Virus record (IMG/VR): IMGVR_UViG_3300046460_000097
Strand: one strand, 5' to 3'
DNA from: a virus
Taxonomy: Duplodnaviria; Caudoviricetes
DNA length: 64,000 bases
The notes under the pieces were generated by a model. The model was not told where the DNA came from. It made no database searches and was given only the letters and a program-made list of their open reading frames with translations. The first letter of the stretch is position 1. Each line of letters opens with the position of its first letter. Positions 17,223 through 53,193 of this stretch are shown here, one piece after another. Position numbers and translations under genes: made by a program.

Positions 17223-17263
17223 AAGTTACATTCTTTTTCAAGTCTATATTACTTGTGGGATAA
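17218..17263 (+). promoter_or_regulatory. Bipartite early-type promoter (copy A)
   Basis: TTTTTAAGTTACA-N12-TCTATATTACTTGTGGGATAA; contains the phiKZ early consensus TATATTAC; near-identical copy at 53194-53239. Confidence 0.75.
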
Positions 17264-41541: not shown

Positions 41542-44007
41542 ATGCTACTTGAATTGGTACTTGAGAATTATGTCCCACTGTTGAGCAGCAACATTCATAA
41601 AGTGGAACTGAATACTGAACATATGATCAACCTGCTTATTTCTCAGAACGGTACTGGTAAGACCAGCATTCTGAAAGAAGCGAATCCGAACCCTCCGGAG
41701 AACGGTAACTATAAAAATGGTCGTAAGTATTCCAAGTGGCGTTTTGGTTCTAACACTTATGAGTTAGACGGCTACACAGGGATTGGTAACGGCCATAGCT
41801 TCAAGGTAAATGGGGGTCCGGAACTCAACACCGGTGGCACCTTTTCCGTACAGAAGGAGTTGGTAGACGCTCACTTCCAAATGGACTCGGGCATGACCAA
41901 GGTGTTGAGTGGGTTGCGCATTGTTGACAGACTGTCCGCTATGTCGCCTGCTCGCCGTAAAGATGTGTTGATGCAGATCTACCCTAACGACACCGATTAT
42001 GCGTTGGGGGTTTACAACAGGCTTAAATCAGAACGGAATGAACTCAAGGCTGCGATCAAGAATCAGATTGGTCGTTATACCGAAGAGAACCGTAAGCTGT
42101 CCTACATCAACGAGGCCGGCATTGATCAGCTAGAAATCCGCATTAAAGGAATCGAGGAAGAGCTTAAGCAGTCTCTCTTGATTCGTGGTGGTTTGGAGAA
42201 CGTTGATATCGATCCTGCACTCCAGTCCAAGGTCGATACTTTCAACCGCCTGACCGACCAACTGTTGGCCAACAAGTTGAGCGGGATCATCTGGACTGAG
42301 AACGAATACCTCGACGCCATTGAGACGGCTACGCGTATTCTGAATCGCCATCAGGAACAGGCGGCTATCCTGCAAGGCATCATCAGTGAGCACGCCAGTT
42401 ATCTCGACGGGCTAGAAGAGTTCCTCAAGGACCCTGATAGCTTTAAGGAACAAGCGGGTCACATTAAGGATGACATCGCTTCTACTCTGGCTCAGATTGA
42501 AGTGATTAACTTGGGGATGCAGCAATACCCTGTGTTCAACGATCCTGAGAGCCCGCTGGAGCGACTGGAAGAAGTAGTTATCCAGTTTATCGGCTACGTT
42601 GATCGCGTAACTGTAGCGAGCACTCAGGAGCTTACAGGTAACCAGTATAAAGGTTATCTGCAGCAACAAGAACAGGCGGCGGTAAAGATCAGAGCTTTAG
42701 CATCTGACATCACTGACCTGACGCATGAGCTGAAGCATTATGACAGTGCAGCGTTAATCGACTGTCCCGATTGCAACAGCCAGTTCAAGATCGGTGTGAC
42801 TAAAGCCGACGTAGATAAGAAACGTATGATCCTAGAAGCTCATCAGGGTCAGCTGAGCAAATTAGAAGCAGCTCAGGAAAAGCTGCAGGTCCTCATCGAG
42901 AATGATGCGGATTGGTATGTGAGCATGAACCAACTGTTTACCTTCGTTCGGGATAACAGCCACGTTCGTATCCTGCCAGATTTGATCAAGCAGTTTGAAG
43001 TGGGTAAGGTGCACAGTCGTAGGCTCCACAACGCACTGGAGTTGTTCCAGAAGCGTTTCGACCTGCAACAGCACCGAGACACGCTGGGTAAAGAAGAGTC
43101 TCTCCTAGACGCTCGTATCGCCCTTCTAGACCGTAATAACGTTCTGGATGTGGCGATCTATGTTAGCAGCACTGAACAAGAGCTGCGTAAGGAGAACGAG
43201 AAGATCTCGTTTTATCGGGCTAAACTCGATAAGCTCAACAACACTTTGCGTTCCATTCAAACTTATGGGAGCGATGTAAAACGGTTAGACGTACTTCGGC
43301 ATGAAATCCTTGTTGGTTTAGAGAGTCAGGGTAAGTTCAATTTGCGCGGTGTGGTTGATCAGCGCATCAGTGAATTGACTACCGATAAAGAGAACTATCT
43401 GACCTCGATCATCAAGAGCAAATCATTGACGGCGGTGGTTCAGTCTATTTCGGCGGACATTGAGCGTATGAAACGACGCTTGAAGATTGTCGATATTCTG
43501 ATGAATGGCTTGTGCCCGAATAAAGGTCTGATTGGTAAGTTGATGTCTGACTTCATCACCAGTATCTGCGGTAACATGAATGCCGTCATCAGCCAGATCT
43601 GGAACACCCCACTGTACATCAAGCCGTGTGCGAAAGAGAATGGGGACTTGACGTATAAGTTCCCAGTCGTCAAAGGGGAGAAAGACGGAGCACCAGACGT
43701 GTCAGATTGCAGTGCAGGGGAAGCAGACATCTTGGACTGGGTATTCCGGTTCGTACTGCTGGGATACCACAAGTTCCCGTTCCCACTTGTAATGGACGAA
43801 GTAGGACCTTTCTTGGATGAGATCAAACGAGGACGGTTCTTCAACTTTGTTCAGGAGTACACGCAAGGCAAAGACGCACGTCAGTTGTTCCTAGTGTCAC
43901 ATTACTTCGGTCAGTTGGGTGTTTTCAAAGACGCCAACATCATTGCACTGCGGTACGAAGGTCTCACTCTTCCGGGTGAGGTTAATCAGCACTCAACAGT
44001 AATGTAA
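41542..44007 (+). CDS. sbcC: SbcC/Rad50-like SMC ATPase
   Basis: Walker A QNGTGKTS, long coiled coils with central CPDC zinc hook, signature CSAGE, Walker B LVMDE, H-loop VSH. Confidence 0.9.
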   Translation: MLLELVLENYVPLLSSNIHKVELNTEHMINLLISQNGTGKTSILKEANPNPPENGNYKNGRKYSKWRFGSNTYELDGYTGIGNGHSFKVNGGPELNTGGTFSVQKELVDAHFQMDSGMTKVLSGLRIVDRLSAMSPARRKDVLMQIYPNDTDYALGVYNRLKSERNELKAAIKNQIGRYTEENRKLSYINEAGIDQLEIRIKGIEEELKQSLLIRGGLENVDIDPALQSKVDTFNRLTDQLLANKLSGIIWTENEYLDAIETATRILNRHQEQAAILQGIISEHASYLDGLEEFLKDPDSFKEQAGHIKDDIASTLAQIEVINLGMQQYPVFNDPESPLERLEEVVIQFIGYVDRVTVASTQELTGNQYKGYLQQQEQAAVKIRALASDITDLTHELKHYDSAALIDCPDCNSQFKIGVTKADVDKKRMILEAHQGQLSKLEAAQEKLQVLIENDADWYVSMNQLFTFVRDNSHVRILPDLIKQFEVGKVHSRRLHNALELFQKRFDLQQHRDTLGKEESLLDARIALLDRNNVLDVAIYVSSTEQELRKENEKISFYRAKLDKLNNTLRSIQTYGSDVKRLDVLRHEILVGLESQGKFNLRGVVDQRISELTTDKENYLTSIIKSKSLTAVVQSISADIERMKRRLKIVDILMNGLCPNKGLIGKLMSDFITSICGNMNAVISQIWNTPLYIKPCAKENGDLTYKFPVVKGEKDGAPDVSDCSAGEADILDWVFRFVLLGYHKFPFPLVMDEVGPFLDEIKRGRFFNFVQEYTQGKDARQLFLVSHYFGQLGVFKDANIIALRYEGLTLPGEVNQHSTVM

Positions 44008-44024
44008 TTTTAAACCTATATTAC
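44008..44024 (+). promoter_or_regulatory. Early-type promoter
   Basis: ttttaaacctatattac with TATATTAC at 44017-44024. Confidence 0.7.
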
Positions 44025-45838: not shown

Positions 45839-47854
45839 ATGGAAATCCATTCGAATCCTACCGTTTATGCTGAAATGAAAAAGCTAAACGATGACATCCT
45901 GTATCACAATGATCTTTACCACAACAAAGACACTCACGTTATTCCCCACAGTGAGTTCGATGCCATGGTAGAACGCTTTGATGAACTGGCTGAGATCTAT
46001 CCGGATATCGCCAAGTTGTTTGTTCATCAACAGAAGGCGGTTCCACTGCACGACCTGACTAACGAAGGGCTGGAGATCGTTGTATTCGATTCTCCCATGC
46101 TCAGTCTGAAGAAGGCTTTAACGTGGCCGCAGTTTGATGCTTGGCTCAACAAGTTTCCTAGCGCCGTCTATCTCGCTATTGTTTACGAGAAGAAGATTGA
46201 CGGGTTGGCGCTTGAGATCCGTTACCTCGACTGGAAACTGCACAAGATCTTTACCCGGGGTGATGGCCTAAAGGGCGAGGACGTTACCCATTCATTCCGT
46301 CTGTTCGGTAACATTCCTGCCGAGATCCCAAAGGTAGTTGGTGGTGGGTTACTGGTTCCGGGAGATCTGGTGGTTCGTGGTGAAGGGTGCATTACTATCC
46401 ATGATTTCCTGCGTTACAACGAGACTGCGGTTAAACCTGCAGCTAATCCTCGTAATGCGGTAAGTGGCTGGGTGCGTGCGCTAGAGAAGAACCAGAACAA
46501 AGACGTGGTCGGCATCCTGCAGTTCTACACCTATTGGTCTAACACCAGTATGGGAGCTGAAGATTACAACGACCTGCGTAGTTGCTGGGAGGCTATTGGC
46601 TTCTACCCTGCGCCGTTATCTTGTCTTGAAGACATCCGTAACGACTACCAAGACACTATCCTGCCAACTGATGGGATTGTGGGCAAGGTGCGTAGCTTCA
46701 CCGTGCAGGAAGCGCTCGGCTACACTAACAAGCACCCTAACTGGGCGATTGCGTACAAGTTCCCAGATGAAGAGAAGGAATCCCCTCTCGAACGTGTTAT
46801 CTGGCAAACCTCTATGACGGGCCGTGTTGTACCCGTCGTGGAATACACCCCTATTGAGTTAGGTGGTGTAACTTGTCGTCGGGCCAATCTGGATAACTAC
46901 CACCAATTCATGGCGTTGGAACTTCATGAAGATTCTGTACTGGGTATTACGCGTAACGGGAATGTTATTCCTCGTGTTAGCCGTGTTGTCGATCGTGGGT
47001 TTGGTAGTCGCCTTAAAGCTCCTGTGGAATGCCCTAGCTGCAATTCCAAGCTGGAGCTGAAGACAGGGAAGACTAGCACTGACCTCGTCTGTAAGAACGT
47101 CATAGGCTGTTCTAGCCAGCTTCTTAACCGCTGTGTATCGTTGGTTAACAAACGTTGCCTCGATATCGACGGGTTAGGACCGGTGCAGTTGGGTGAACTG
47201 ATTACCCACAAGAAGATCAGCAGTACCGCAGACCTCTTCATGATGACTCCTCAGCATGTGGGGGATAAACTGTACGCAGAGATTCAAGGCAGTCGTATTC
47301 AGTTCCTGCATCGTGCTATCAAGGCGCTGGGGCTTCCTGGGATCGACCTGATCCGTGCGAAGAAGATTGCCAAGGCCATGAGTCATATCAAGGTTGATGG
47401 TGACGTGGACAGCCGCGGGGACATGTTGCACTTCATCGGTAATGTAGACAACCTCGTAAAGATCCCGGGTATCTCTACCGGTATCGCACTTCCTATCGCG
47501 AAAACGTTGGAAGACAATGCTTTCTGGAAGAACGCCCTTAACGTATTGATGTACTTGGACATTCTGCCGGAAGGTGACACCGATAACGATCTCAAGGTTT
47601 GTATAACGGGGGAGCTGGGACTATCTCGTGACGAACTGATTGATTACTTTGCCGATCAAGGTATCGAATTGGTGGACAACCTCACCAAGAGCTGTGTCGC
47701 TTTGATCGTGGGTGAGAAGCCCGGAAACGTCAAGCTGTTAAAGGCAACTGAGCTAGGTATCTTTATGGTGAATTCTGATAAAGCATCTAGCATCGATAAC
47801 CTGATCGAACAGATCAAGAACCACAACCAAGGGGACGTGCATGACAACCGCTAA
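45839..47854 (+). CDS. ligA: NAD+-dependent DNA ligase
   Basis: Ia domain YHN...D..FD, motif I KIDG, TRGDG..GEDVT, WAIAYKF, OB fold, C4 zinc finger (CPSC...C...C), HhH and BRCT. Confidence 0.95.
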   Translation: MEIHSNPTVYAEMKKLNDDILYHNDLYHNKDTHVIPHSEFDAMVERFDELAEIYPDIAKLFVHQQKAVPLHDLTNEGLEIVVFDSPMLSLKKALTWPQFDAWLNKFPSAVYLAIVYEKKIDGLALEIRYLDWKLHKIFTRGDGLKGEDVTHSFRLFGNIPAEIPKVVGGGLLVPGDLVVRGEGCITIHDFLRYNETAVKPAANPRNAVSGWVRALEKNQNKDVVGILQFYTYWSNTSMGAEDYNDLRSCWEAIGFYPAPLSCLEDIRNDYQDTILPTDGIVGKVRSFTVQEALGYTNKHPNWAIAYKFPDEEKESPLERVIWQTSMTGRVVPVVEYTPIELGGVTCRRANLDNYHQFMALELHEDSVLGITRNGNVIPRVSRVVDRGFGSRLKAPVECPSCNSKLELKTGKTSTDLVCKNVIGCSSQLLNRCVSLVNKRCLDIDGLGPVQLGELITHKKISSTADLFMMTPQHVGDKLYAEIQGSRIQFLHRAIKALGLPGIDLIRAKKIAKAMSHIKVDGDVDSRGDMLHFIGNVDNLVKIPGISTGIALPIAKTLEDNAFWKNALNVLMYLDILPEGDTDNDLKVCITGELGLSRDELIDYFADQGIELVDNLTKSCVALIVGEKPGNVKLLKATELGIFMVNSDKASSIDNLIEQIKNHNQGDVHDNR

Positions 47855-49505
47855 GACCAAGAAGCTGGACCATAACGAAGTCCAGAAGCAAACCACCGCC
47901 GCTGTTAAAGCGCTACCGAAAGACGTCAAGGAAGAACTGGATGAACTCGTTACAAAGAACATCGAAGCCAACAAAGGCAAAGCAGTGGCCAAAGCGGTTG
48001 CAGCGGCTGAAGAATCTCTCACACAAAGTGAAGATGTTTCTAAAGGTGGCAGTAAGCTGATCATGGAAACGGGTCTGACTTCGGTCATCCACATTACTCC
48101 GGCACAGGCACGTATGCTGACCGCCAACTCTGGCGACGTACTGCGTGAAATTAACAAGAAGACCGGCGTGTCGTTGGAAGTGGCTGAAGACGGCGAAGTG
48201 AAGATCAAGGGTGACACGGCAAAAGCGATTGATCTGGCGCACTCGTTTATCTTGGACGTGATAACCACTCCTGGTGAACTGGTTGCTACTCTTGATAGCG
48301 GTACCGGTAAGGTCATCGACTACCGTCTGAAGCGCCCGCTGACGTTTGAAGAACGCGAGCTGCTGCCAAAGCCATGGGTGATCATTGACGGTGTCCAGAT
48401 CGAACCCAAGGCGACCGGTCTCAAGTTGTCTGGCGGGCGTATTGTCCCTAACCAAACACCGTTGACCTATGAGCGTGACGTCTACATCAACTACTACGGC
48501 GCTGACTCCAAAGACCTGACATTCACTCAGTTCGCGGTGGTCATCAACGGCCGTACTGTTACCGTCATGCTCGATGAGAAGTCGACTCTGGAAGTCACCA
48601 ACACCTACTTCGGTAGCGAACGGTCTGACTCCGATGCAGCAATCCAGCGTAATGCACTGGTGACCCTCATCAACTCCAGCAGCCGTAACGACAGCTTCTT
48701 CGGCGACAACCTGTTGATCGGTCTCGAGTCGACGTATAGCTCGTACACCGATGCCTGCGTCAGCAAGACCCTCACTGGCAGCTACCGCGCCAAGACACCG
48801 CCGCCGATCGTTGACCTGCCGTGGGACTCTCGTGGTGCCAGCTTTGGCACGGACCGTAATAAGGTCTCTCACACTACTTTCCGCCAAGCGTTGATCGAAG
48901 GCACCATCTTGGCATCTGGTGTGTACAAGAATGTGCAGATCTTTGCGTCGACTATCAAGAGTGAGCATTCCGTTACGTTTGAGAACGTGAGCATGGACGG
49001 TGACACTATCAAGGCGAAGTCTATCGTCATGAAGCACACCACCACCAAGGGCTTCCGTTTGATGACCGATGGGCCGGTGTTGATTGTTAACACTCGCTTT
49101 AAAGATGTTGCTCCGGTTCTCCCTGGGCTGTACATGCCGAACAAGTTCTGTGCGTTGCAGATCGATTTGCCGCTCGGTCAGTTGTCCATGTACCGTGAAA
49201 GCAAAGAAAAGATTTGCCTGACGGTCAACTCGTACATTTCGGTCGTGATGAATCTGGACGATGACTTCGACACGATCGAAGAGAAGGTTGCCGAGCTGAT
49301 GACCAAGTCTGCCGGCGGCTGGGGGAATACTTCCGGCATCGATCCGAAAGACAACGATCCGCTGACCCGCAATCTGATGATATATGTGGTGGCTGCTATC
49401 CGCTCCCGCATCAAGGTCATCAAACTGTTGGACAGTGCTATCAAGGTGGCTGAAACCATCACCGCAACCGGTCGTGACGACTACTACGATCAACAACCGT
49501 TCTGA
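47841..49505 (+). CDS. PNPase-like KH domain fused to a beta-repeat domain
   Basis: IHITPAQARMLTANSGDVLREINKKTGVSLEVAEDGEVKI resembles the PNPase KH segment; remainder is paralogous to 49573..50559. Confidence 0.6.
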   Translation: MTTAKTKKLDHNEVQKQTTAAVKALPKDVKEELDELVTKNIEANKGKAVAKAVAAAEESLTQSEDVSKGGSKLIMETGLTSVIHITPAQARMLTANSGDVLREINKKTGVSLEVAEDGEVKIKGDTAKAIDLAHSFILDVITTPGELVATLDSGTGKVIDYRLKRPLTFEERELLPKPWVIIDGVQIEPKATGLKLSGGRIVPNQTPLTYERDVYINYYGADSKDLTFTQFAVVINGRTVTVMLDEKSTLEVTNTYFGSERSDSDAAIQRNALVTLINSSSRNDSFFGDNLLIGLESTYSSYTDACVSKTLTGSYRAKTPPPIVDLPWDSRGASFGTDRNKVSHTTFRQALIEGTILASGVYKNVQIFASTIKSEHSVTFENVSMDGDTIKAKSIVMKHTTTKGFRLMTDGPVLIVNTRFKDVAPVLPGLYMPNKFCALQIDLPLGQLSMYRESKEKICLTVNSYISVVMNLDDDFDTIEEKVAELMTKSAGGWGNTSGIDPKDNDPLTRNLMIYVVAAIRSRIKVIKLLDSAIKVAETITATGRDDYYDQQPF

Positions 49506-49549: not shown

Positions 49550-49572
49550 TATAGCTATGTGGAGTGTTCTTT

Positions 49573-50559
49573 ATGGCTATTAGCAAAGCAACCGTACTTT
49601 TGGACGGCGTAGAAGTTTCTCCAGTCGATACCGAGCACATGCCTAACCCTGACGGTAACGGTCCTGACTGGGTGCCGATTGGTGGCGTGTTCAGTTTGTT
49701 CGAAGTGGAGCTTAAAGGCTACGTGCTTCGGATGTGTCTGGACAGTGAGTCCTTGGTTGATCTGGACTCTGAACACAAGTTCTTTAAGCGACTGGCTATG
49801 TGCGACGATGATCTTCCGGATGCGCCTTGCATCTTGGCTGATATCGTTTTGATCAACTCGCAAATCGTCGACAGTGCGTTTGCCGGTGTCAGTACGTTTA
49901 CTAACGTCGTTCTTGAAAACTGCTGTGTGGTTAACTCCACTATGCTGTACAACGAGAGGTGGGGCAACCTGCAATTCAGGACGATCAAGAACGCCCTTAT
50001 TGAAACGTGTTATCTCGAAGATAACACGATCCGTAGTTCGTGCCGTGCGCTTACCTTGCGTAACAGCAGCTTGGTCGGCAACGATATCGAAAACCATGGT
50101 GTGGGTATTCTCATTGAGGATAGCACCATCGATAACTCCACCTTTGACGTGGGGAATGTCTTCGATATCTACACCAGCGTTCTGAGCAACGTTGTTCTGA
50201 CGGTGAAGGGCTTCATGCGACTCACCAATCAGCGCTTGGAGAATGTTGAGTTCCACGCCGACAGCTTGGACCTTTACAACAAGTTCTGCTCGTTCTCGTT
50301 GGAACTTGATACCGGGCGGTTGCAGTTCCATATGGCCCGTACTGACAGTGGTGCTCTTTCGATGGAAGGGTACGAAGACGTCATTGATGTGGATGATCCG
50401 GATTACAGGGAGAAATTGATTCGCCTGTTGAAACATTCTGGTCACCCTATCCCTGAAGATGTGGCCGAGTATATTGATGCGTGTGTTAAATCACGTCTCA
50501 GTGTACTGAAGAAGATTGATGACGCTAAACAGGCGGAGTTCATGCGAGCATTGGAATAA
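49573..50559 (+). CDS. Beta-helix-like repeat protein, paralog of the upstream gene
   Basis: ATG 49573 after GGAG; periodic I/V-x-N/D-S pattern; shares the NKFC motif and the terminal SR..V.K..D.A helix with 47841..49505. Confidence 0.6.
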   Translation: MAISKATVLLDGVEVSPVDTEHMPNPDGNGPDWVPIGGVFSLFEVELKGYVLRMCLDSESLVDLDSEHKFFKRLAMCDDDLPDAPCILADIVLINSQIVDSAFAGVSTFTNVVLENCCVVNSTMLYNERWGNLQFRTIKNALIETCYLEDNTIRSSCRALTLRNSSLVGNDIENHGVGILIEDSTIDNSTFDVGNVFDIYTSVLSNVVLTVKGFMRLTNQRLENVEFHADSLDLYNKFCSFSLELDTGRLQFHMARTDSGALSMEGYEDVIDVDDPDYREKLIRLLKHSGHPIPEDVAEYIDACVKSRLSVLKKIDDAKQAEFMRALE

Positions 50560-50569
50560 GAGAGATGAA

Positions 50570-51058
50570 ATGAGCAAATCAAAACCAGACACTATTGTTT
50601 ACAAGGTGCATACCGATGGCAGTGCCTTGGGCAATCCGGGGCCTGGTGGTTATGCGTTGGTAGTGAGATGCGGAGACGCGGAGGTCGTCACACTCTCGAA
50701 AGGCTACTTCAAAACAACAAACAACCGGATGGAATTGCTGGCCATCATTGTGCTGCTGGAGACTTACGGAGCCCCGGGGAACTTCTTTGACGTATACACG
50801 GATTCGATGTACGTCATTGATGGGGCTACGAAGTGGCACAAGAGTTGGGCTAGAAATAACTGGATCACTTGGCGGACTCAACAGCCCGTCAAGAATGCCG
50901 ACCTGTGGAAGCGCGTAGAACCTCTGTTGAAAGCTAACAAGGTGAAGTTCACGCACGTGCGCGCTCACACAGGTATTCCGGATAACGAAATGGCGGATAA
51001 GCTAGCCAAGGAAGCGGCAGCGGCTCCTACCGAAATCGACGAAGGCTTCATGGGGTGA
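50570..51058 (+). CDS. rnhA: Ribonuclease HI
   Basis: TDGSALGNPGPGG, TNNRMEL, TDSMYV, KNADLW, HVRAHTG..DNEMADKLA. Confidence 0.95.
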   Translation: MSKSKPDTIVYKVHTDGSALGNPGPGGYALVVRCGDAEVVTLSKGYFKTTNNRMELLAIIVLLETYGAPGNFFDVYTDSMYVIDGATKWHKSWARNNWITWRTQQPVKNADLWKRVEPLLKANKVKFTHVRAHTGIPDNEMADKLAKEAAAAPTEIDEGFMG

Positions 51059-53129: not shown

Positions 53130-53135
53130 TCTACT

Positions 53136-53171
53136 TATACCCCTACCAGCCTCCGGGTTGGTAGGGGTATA
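53136..53171 (+). terminator. Terminator hairpin
   Basis: tatacccctaccagcc-tccg-ggttggtaggggtata. Confidence 0.75.
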
Positions 53172-53193
53172 GGGTTATAATTGCTTTTCGTTA

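Follow-up and report, generated by a model that had tools for sequence, protein, structure and literature searches.

A PNPase-type KH domain with an altered clasp as a lineage-specific insert in a jumbo-phage protein of the phage EL gp123 family

The KH domain of PNPase is the closest described relative of the domain reported here. In Caulobacter PNPase the phosphate contacts of the KH loop are made via the main-chain amide of G574, while the side chain of the loop residue S573 forms hydrogen bonds to a 2'-OH and a base, and in the Escherichia coli enzyme a glycine to aspartate exchange at the first glycine of the clasp reduces the affinity for RNA (PMC3376730). Recruitment of PNPase to RNase E proceeds via the RNase PH-like core of the enzyme, and truncation of the KH and S1 domains has no effect on it (PMC2723993). 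For KH folds without the GXXG motif, binding of nucleic acid has not been shown, and a survey of these folds expects the clasp to tolerate few variants (PMC12127562). KH domains also occur in proteins of DNA replication and repair, including PINA (PMC6061704) and ASCC1 (PMC11214414).

The remainder of the phage protein belongs to the family of gp123 of Pseudomonas phage EL, on which no relevant literature was found. Regarding interference of phages with the degradosome, phage phiKZ has the degradosome inhibitor Dip (gp37), which acts on RNA-binding segments of RNase E and not by copying PNPase.

Gene layout and the phage EL gp123 family

The DNA analysed (the window, 64,000 nucleotides of IMG/VR record IMGVR_UViG_3300046460_000097) comes from a giant (jumbo) soil phage that is kin to Pseudomonas phage EL. 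The operon that holds the KH gene and its surroundings have the following features.

44005-44024, + strand: phage promoter motif AATTTTAAACCTATATTAC at the head of the operon with the KH gene, matching an annotated promoter of EL
45839-47854, + strand: NAD-dependent DNA ligase (Pfam DNA_ligase_aden, 2.9e-37; OB fold; BRCT)
47841-49505, + strand: gene of the 554-aa protein, with N-terminal motif, KH insert, beta-solenoid and helical C-terminal part
49564-50559, + strand: short acidic paralog of 331 aa, consisting of solenoid and C-terminal part only
50516-51058, + strand: RNase HI, the conserved downstream neighbour (Pfam RNase_H, 1.8e-40)
53134-53173, + strand: strong terminator-like hairpin of 18 pairs at the operon end

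The 554-aa protein is a homologue of EL ORF123 and is encoded at the equivalent genomic position; its gene has a Shine-Dalgarno-like AAGGGGA ahead of the start, and its N-terminus, MTTAK, agrees with that of the family. The last 14 nt of the ligase gene (47841-47854) are also the first of the KH gene, while the corresponding genes overlap by 4 nt in EL and lie 13 nt apart in the locus L011, and this closeness suggests that expression of the two proteins, ligase and family member, is coupled. The order of ligase, family gene, RNase HI, DHH phosphoesterase and Acb1-like gene recurs in all three genomes checked for the ligase and RNase HI synteny (the window phage, EL and L011/G002). Regarding the promoter, TATATTAC was found four times in the window (positions 17245, 44017, 53221 and 63225) against 0.46 occurrences expected, and the motif matches the 'putative phage promoter' annotated ahead of ORF119 of EL. 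The motif AATTTTAAACCTAyATTA is nearly letter-identical between window positions 44005-44024 and the EL promoter (L003 2163-2181).

A search of 1.84 billion cluster representatives revealed 47 related clusters (E down to 5e-59), with lengths of 424-543 aa except for one 251-aa fragment, all of which align from about aa 155-180 of the 554-aa protein onward. Among phage records, matches to the protein were detected only in EL-like Pseudomonas phages; in EL itself the match is ORF123 (CAG27217.1), a 435-aa hypothetical protein homologous to aa 175-546 (pairwise E 2e-12; E 3.6e-77 with the family profile), while the family profile had no match in phiKZ or 201phi2-1. Structural relatives in BFVD come from other jumbo phages, namely Erwinia RisingSun, Vibrio VP4B, Edwardsiella pEt-SU and Klebsiella Miami. 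Neither the protein nor any of its parts had a match among the PHROGs families, and a single-protein scan with P0005 gave no further distant loci of the family. Members share a common plan, with a short lysine-rich N-terminal motif, a linker of 50-177 aa whose content is not conserved, a conserved beta-solenoid, an alpha/beta part and a disordered acidic/aromatic tail, and homology across the family covers the roughly 380 aa of the solenoid and C-terminal part. In the 554-aa protein these parts, together with the KH domain, are located as follows.

47841-48020, + strand: lysine-rich helical N-terminal segment, aa 1-60, from alignment with family members (which also have the segment) and predicted helices
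48075-48272, + strand: type I KH domain of the PNPase type, aa 79-144, a lineage-specific insert recognised from profile, pairwise and fold matches and absent from the 46 other family clusters
48123-48134, + strand: clasp A95-N96-S97-G98 in place of GxxG (GxGG in PNPase), from HMMER and BLAST alignments
48363-49136, + strand: beta-solenoid, aa 175-432, the conserved family core, with a weak likeness to pentapeptide repeats
49137-49505, + strand: C-terminal alpha/beta subdomain, aa 433-554, up to the stop codon

This is a new domain architecture from known parts, and not a demonstrated mechanism. Modelling of the whole protein with AF2 without an alignment was poor (pLDDT 36). The C-terminal subdomain contains a long helix (aa 507-541) carrying S522-R523, the only invariant residues of the family, and ends in the disordered acidic/aromatic tail DDYYDQQPF. 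A candidate relation of the C-terminal part from the ESM Atlas, where only KH-named eukaryotic clusters were returned with scores of at most 0.81, was in the range of chance and was set aside, also because the result referred to the protein as a whole.

Like the pentapeptide-repeat proteins MfpA, QnrB1 and AlbG, with which there are weak fold matches, the family protein has a solenoid of short strands, but it differs from them in its extra C-terminal alpha/beta part. The family profile matched MfpA among PDB sequences (E 1.1e-4), while the Pfam pentapeptide models (PF00805 and PF13599) all stayed below their cut-offs, with Pentapeptide_4 detected weakly in 6 of 49 members (best E 0.044). The period-5 signal of the solenoid is marginal, being reached by 69 of 2000 shuffles, and that of period 6 is similar.

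A type I KH domain with a non-canonical clasp

The preliminary description had proposed, from an alignment by eye, that a PNPase-like KH domain is fused into a phage protein at 48040-48290. This stretch corresponds to aa 67-150 of the 554-aa protein, the peptide that had been aligned is aa 83-124 of the ORF at 47841-49505 on the + strand, and the KH domain lies inside it. Both the identity of the domain and the fusion were borne out: aa 79-144 are a genuine type I KH domain of roughly 66 aa, nearest to the KH domain of PNPase, and the remainder of the protein is of the phage-specific EL gp123 family.

Scans with the Pfam model KH_1 (PF00013) exceeded its gathering cut-off of 21.5 bits both with the whole protein (aa 82-138, 21.9 bits, E 1.5e-4) and with aa 64-170 alone (25.1 bits, E 1.5e-5). 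In NCBIfam the PNPase equivalogs TIGR03591 and NF008805 take the first two ranks (E about 1.4e-6, 27 bits), the match covering model positions 552-616 of 689, which are the KH domain; next come exosome Rrp4 and KH proteins of archaea, with about 18 bits. In a phmmer search of the representatives of all libraries, the single match outside the family was P0047, a fragment with an alphaproteobacterial PNPase C-terminus, to which the KH segment is 36% identical (59% positives) over 75 aa without a gap (BLASTP E 8e-13); identity to PNPases is 29-36%. When sequences of the PDB were searched with phmmer, the eight top chains were all PNPase, each of them weak (E 0.007-0.03). Taken on their own, these last E-values would suit a chance resemblance with no KH domain present; however, given the Pfam score above cut-off, the NCBIfam E-value and the gapless pairwise match, as well as the KH topology of both structural models and the KH fold matches of the second, a coincidence of this kind is scarcely credible.

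The single-sequence AF2 model of the domain has strands and helices in the order beta-alpha-alpha-beta-beta-alpha (E80-84, H87-96, H99-108, E111-114, E119-123, H127-142). An alignment-based model is similar, with the first strand not called, its KH part having zero alignment depth and a pLDDT of 60-75; fold matches of this model were the KH domains of PNPase, PCBP, hnRNP K and MEX-3C.

As in the KH domain of PNPase (TIGR03591; PDB 6qh2, 4aim, 3cdi), its top match in NCBIfam and PDB sequences, the phage domain has the type I fold and aligns without gaps, and the PNPase strand DDGTVKI is kept as EDGEVKI. Unlike in PNPase, it stands alone, without RNase PH core or S1, and its clasp is ANSG and not GxGG. 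With Pfam, no RNase PH domain was detected in the 554-aa protein and no S1 domain after the KH domain at E<=1. The protein is not a PNPase, as the cut-offs of the PNPase models (525 and 471 bits) were not reached and only the KH domain aligns. An S1 remnant as part of the captured piece was considered and rejected: alignments run on into the first S1 strand, and this extension is non-significant. PNPase alignments also tend to run weakly, and likewise non-significantly, into the linker ahead of the KH domain. Extension past the KH domain would fit the capture of a pnp fragment, although the extension itself is non-significant.

Regarding the clasp, 80 alphaproteobacterial pnp loci were fetched and 77 PNPases scored, all of which (77/77) have G[STQA]GG, while the PNPases of the PDB in the alignment have GKGG or GSGG. 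In the phage domain two of the three glycines that are invariant in the PNPases examined, those at positions 1 and 3, are replaced and the last is kept. The replacement of GxxG by ANSG, reported earlier, was thus confirmed, but to call the loop 'broken' is too strong, because many PNPases also have no basic residue at the x positions (GSGG, GTGG) and the phosphate contacts are made by a main-chain amide. No canonical GXXG is present between helices 1 and 2, and the domain is therefore filed as a KH-fold homologue with a non-canonical clasp and not as a canonical nucleic-acid-binding KH domain. It resembles the KH folds without canonical GXXG (PMC12127562) in that the fold is kept and the clasp altered, and nucleic-acid binding is therefore uncertain. 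In contrast to that class, it retains the second glycine of the clasp and has the next-smallest residue in place of the first, so that it need not have lost binding. Its net charge is -2, slightly on the acidic side. The altered clasp is a natural experiment on the extent to which a KH domain requires the GXXG motif.

Distribution and origin of the insert

The KH domain is present in only one of the 47 family clusters, that of the 554-aa protein, and absent from the other 46. In the family alignment (A3) it lies in the variable linker that connects the N-terminal motif with the solenoid; EL ORF123 and the uncultured relatives share with the 554-aa protein the start motif, the acidic/aromatic tail and the slot between NAD-dependent ligase and RNase HI, but at the site of the KH domain EL ORF123 and each of the 46 other clusters contain just a short, variable linker. 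A KH_1 search of EL, phiKZ and the complete 224.7-kb relative G002 gave no match anywhere, while the same search detected the KH_1 family in 14/14 control genomes. The family gene is present in one copy in EL and G002 and in two copies in the window phage. The second copy, the adjacent paralog at 49564-50559, matches aa 175-542 of the KH protein (E 8e-10), beginning right at the solenoid, and contains neither the N-terminal motif, the linker, a KH domain (Pfam) nor the tail motif, in agreement with the earlier remark that this neighbour is devoid of the domain.

Among 50,697 phage records there were no relatives of this KH domain, and no close relative was found in the 185,579 species genomes of bacteria. 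Searches for KH-bearing relatives in phage records (megablast and tblastn), viral and metagenome contigs and bacterial genomes returned only the same phage at 99% identity, as did a word-index search of aa 60-175. When the KH domain of PNPase was used as query against the phage collection, every match extended into PNPase core sequence; annotation, where present, identifies pnp genes or a bacterial record, and short fragments without annotation make up most of the remainder. Phage proteins seem to contain KH domains only very rarely.

Regarding the PNPase sequences met in these searches, several records of the phage collection, among them AGRM01000002.1, OR851012.1 and OQ572408.1, contain sequence that spans the core and the KH domain of PNPase; they include a 691-kb Salmonella scaffold with an annotated pnp gene as well as many short fragments without annotation, and they look like host DNA or contamination. 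The fragment P0047 (227 aa) joins a C-terminal piece of PNPase (the end of the core and the KH domain) to sigma-70 region 4 and is probably a chimera of assembly or gene calling.

Since EL, phiKZ and the complete relative have no KH domain and the paralog is without the whole N-terminal region, the distribution fits an insertion in one lineage, and it is plausible that a domain derived from a cellular pnp gene was inserted there into the variable linker. A gain from such a gene long ago is the parsimonious reading. The preliminary description had called the domain captured from a host: a cellular (pnp) origin is plausible, but the capture was not recent, because identity to PNPases is 29-36%, the GC content of the insert (0.53) is that of the gene (0.528) and thus phage-like in composition, and there is no close bacterial relative. 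The other copies of the gene come only from IMG/VR and JGI contigs and are 98.8% identical at the DNA level, with 24 differing positions in the gene. Codon changes relative to the 99% relative were 19 synonymous and 4 non-synonymous in the whole gene and 4 synonymous and 0 non-synonymous inside the KH domain; though the counts are small, they point to a maintained coding domain under purifying selection, and the insert looks folded. The locus offers a clean, datable case in which a conserved protein of a jumbo phage acquired a domain from a cellular enzyme of RNA decay.

Possible roles of the KH domain and the acidic paralog

Our tentative preference, held with somewhat less than even confidence, is that the KH domain acts as a weak, low-affinity tether to single-stranded RNA or DNA that carries the solenoid to its site of action. 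Placed on a flexible linker, the domain would still hold single-stranded RNA or DNA at low affinity, and the tether would bring the solenoid domain to a place of action, possibly RNA-DNA or nicked intermediates on which the adjacent ligase and RNase HI act, a connection suggested by gene order only. We infer this because the clasp keeps its last glycine and a small first residue and the loop of PNPase makes its phosphate contacts via a main-chain amide. Against the tether stand the KH folds without GXXG, for which nucleic acid binding is not shown (PMC12127562), the weakened RNA affinity of E. coli PNPase with G-to-D at the first glycine (PMC3376730), the slight acidity of the domain (net -2) and the pLDDT of 60-75 of a model part without alignment depth. 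Other members have no folded domain here, and only some of the linkers are basic (27/47), so that tethering to nucleic acid would not be a family trait; the idea that the N-terminal linkers of the family are basic nucleic-acid-binding tails was likewise dropped, the net charge being positive in only 27 of the 47.

The same substitutions can be read as a loss of nucleic-acid binding, the domain then being a protein-protein docking module through which the solenoid protein would be brought to a partner of phage or host origin, such as the ligase, RNase HI or a protein of host RNA processing. This would suit the replacement of two clasp glycines that are invariant in PNPase, the survey of GXXG-less folds (PMC12127562), the archaeal PINA, whose KH domain binds a helicase (PMC6061704), and a mildly acidic domain that is still under purifying selection; the last glycine and the groove-forming helices are kept, however, and alanine is a conservative replacement of the first glycine, and we place docking second to the tether, as less likely than not. 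That the domain is a tolerated remnant, left by illegitimate recombination involving a pnp gene and serving as a folded spacer within a freely varying linker, agrees with a linker of 50-177 aa without conserved content across the family and with the presence of the KH domain in a single lineage. Such a remnant is improbable in view of the 0 non-synonymous against 4 synonymous changes (small numbers) and of a fold signature that, for all its deep divergence, still exceeds the Pfam cut-off and so speaks for a domain long retained under constraint.

The preliminary description had favoured a mimic or decoy of PNPase that disturbs the host degradosome or the partners of PNPase and is functionally like Dip of phiKZ. 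The KH domain is PNPase-derived, the operon with its EL-type phage promoter also holds an Acb1-like anti-defence gene (the L011 locus carries Acb1 too), and in the PNPase trimer the KH domains touch one another and RNA (PMC3376730), which makes interference at this ring conceivable. However, it is the RNase PH-like core of PNPase, and not its KH domain, that RNase E binds, and deletion of KH and S1 leaves binding unchanged (PMC2723993); a lone KH domain therefore cannot copy the degradosome interface, and the structural rationale for the decoy falls away. The domain is about 30-36% identical to any PNPase found and so does not copy a host surface, and the neighbouring genes encode replication and repair enzymes. 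No similarity to phiKZ proteins, including Dip (gp37), was seen, phiKZ being absent from the tblastn and family-profile matches, and Dip shares with the phage protein only the target proposed in that first reading. On this evidence the decoy is very improbable, and it is equally doubtful in the specific form of a dominant-negative domain that would dock early on the KH/S1 portal of host PNPase or on a partner (Hfq-sRNA) and shield phage transcripts. If true, it would be a new route of jumbo phages against host RNA decay that uses a stolen piece of the enzyme itself, and a second route of degradosome interference, unrelated to Dip. The KH domain gives experiments a point of entry to the EL gp123 family, encoded beside the phage ligase and RNase HI.

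Regarding the paralog, its net charge is -26 (pI 4.5), and it is strongly acidic compared with the near-neutral solenoid of the KH-bearing copy. The acidic charge and the weak likeness to pentapeptide repeats make a DNA-mimic-like protein a possibility. Most C-termini in the family (P0002-P0049) are disordered and acidic/aromatic, including DDYYDQQPF (49470-49502), EDDFGRPF, WDDIYAV and YDSPYGD. These tails recall the C-terminal tips by which SSB (DDDIPF) and T7 gp2.5 dock enzymes of replication and repair.
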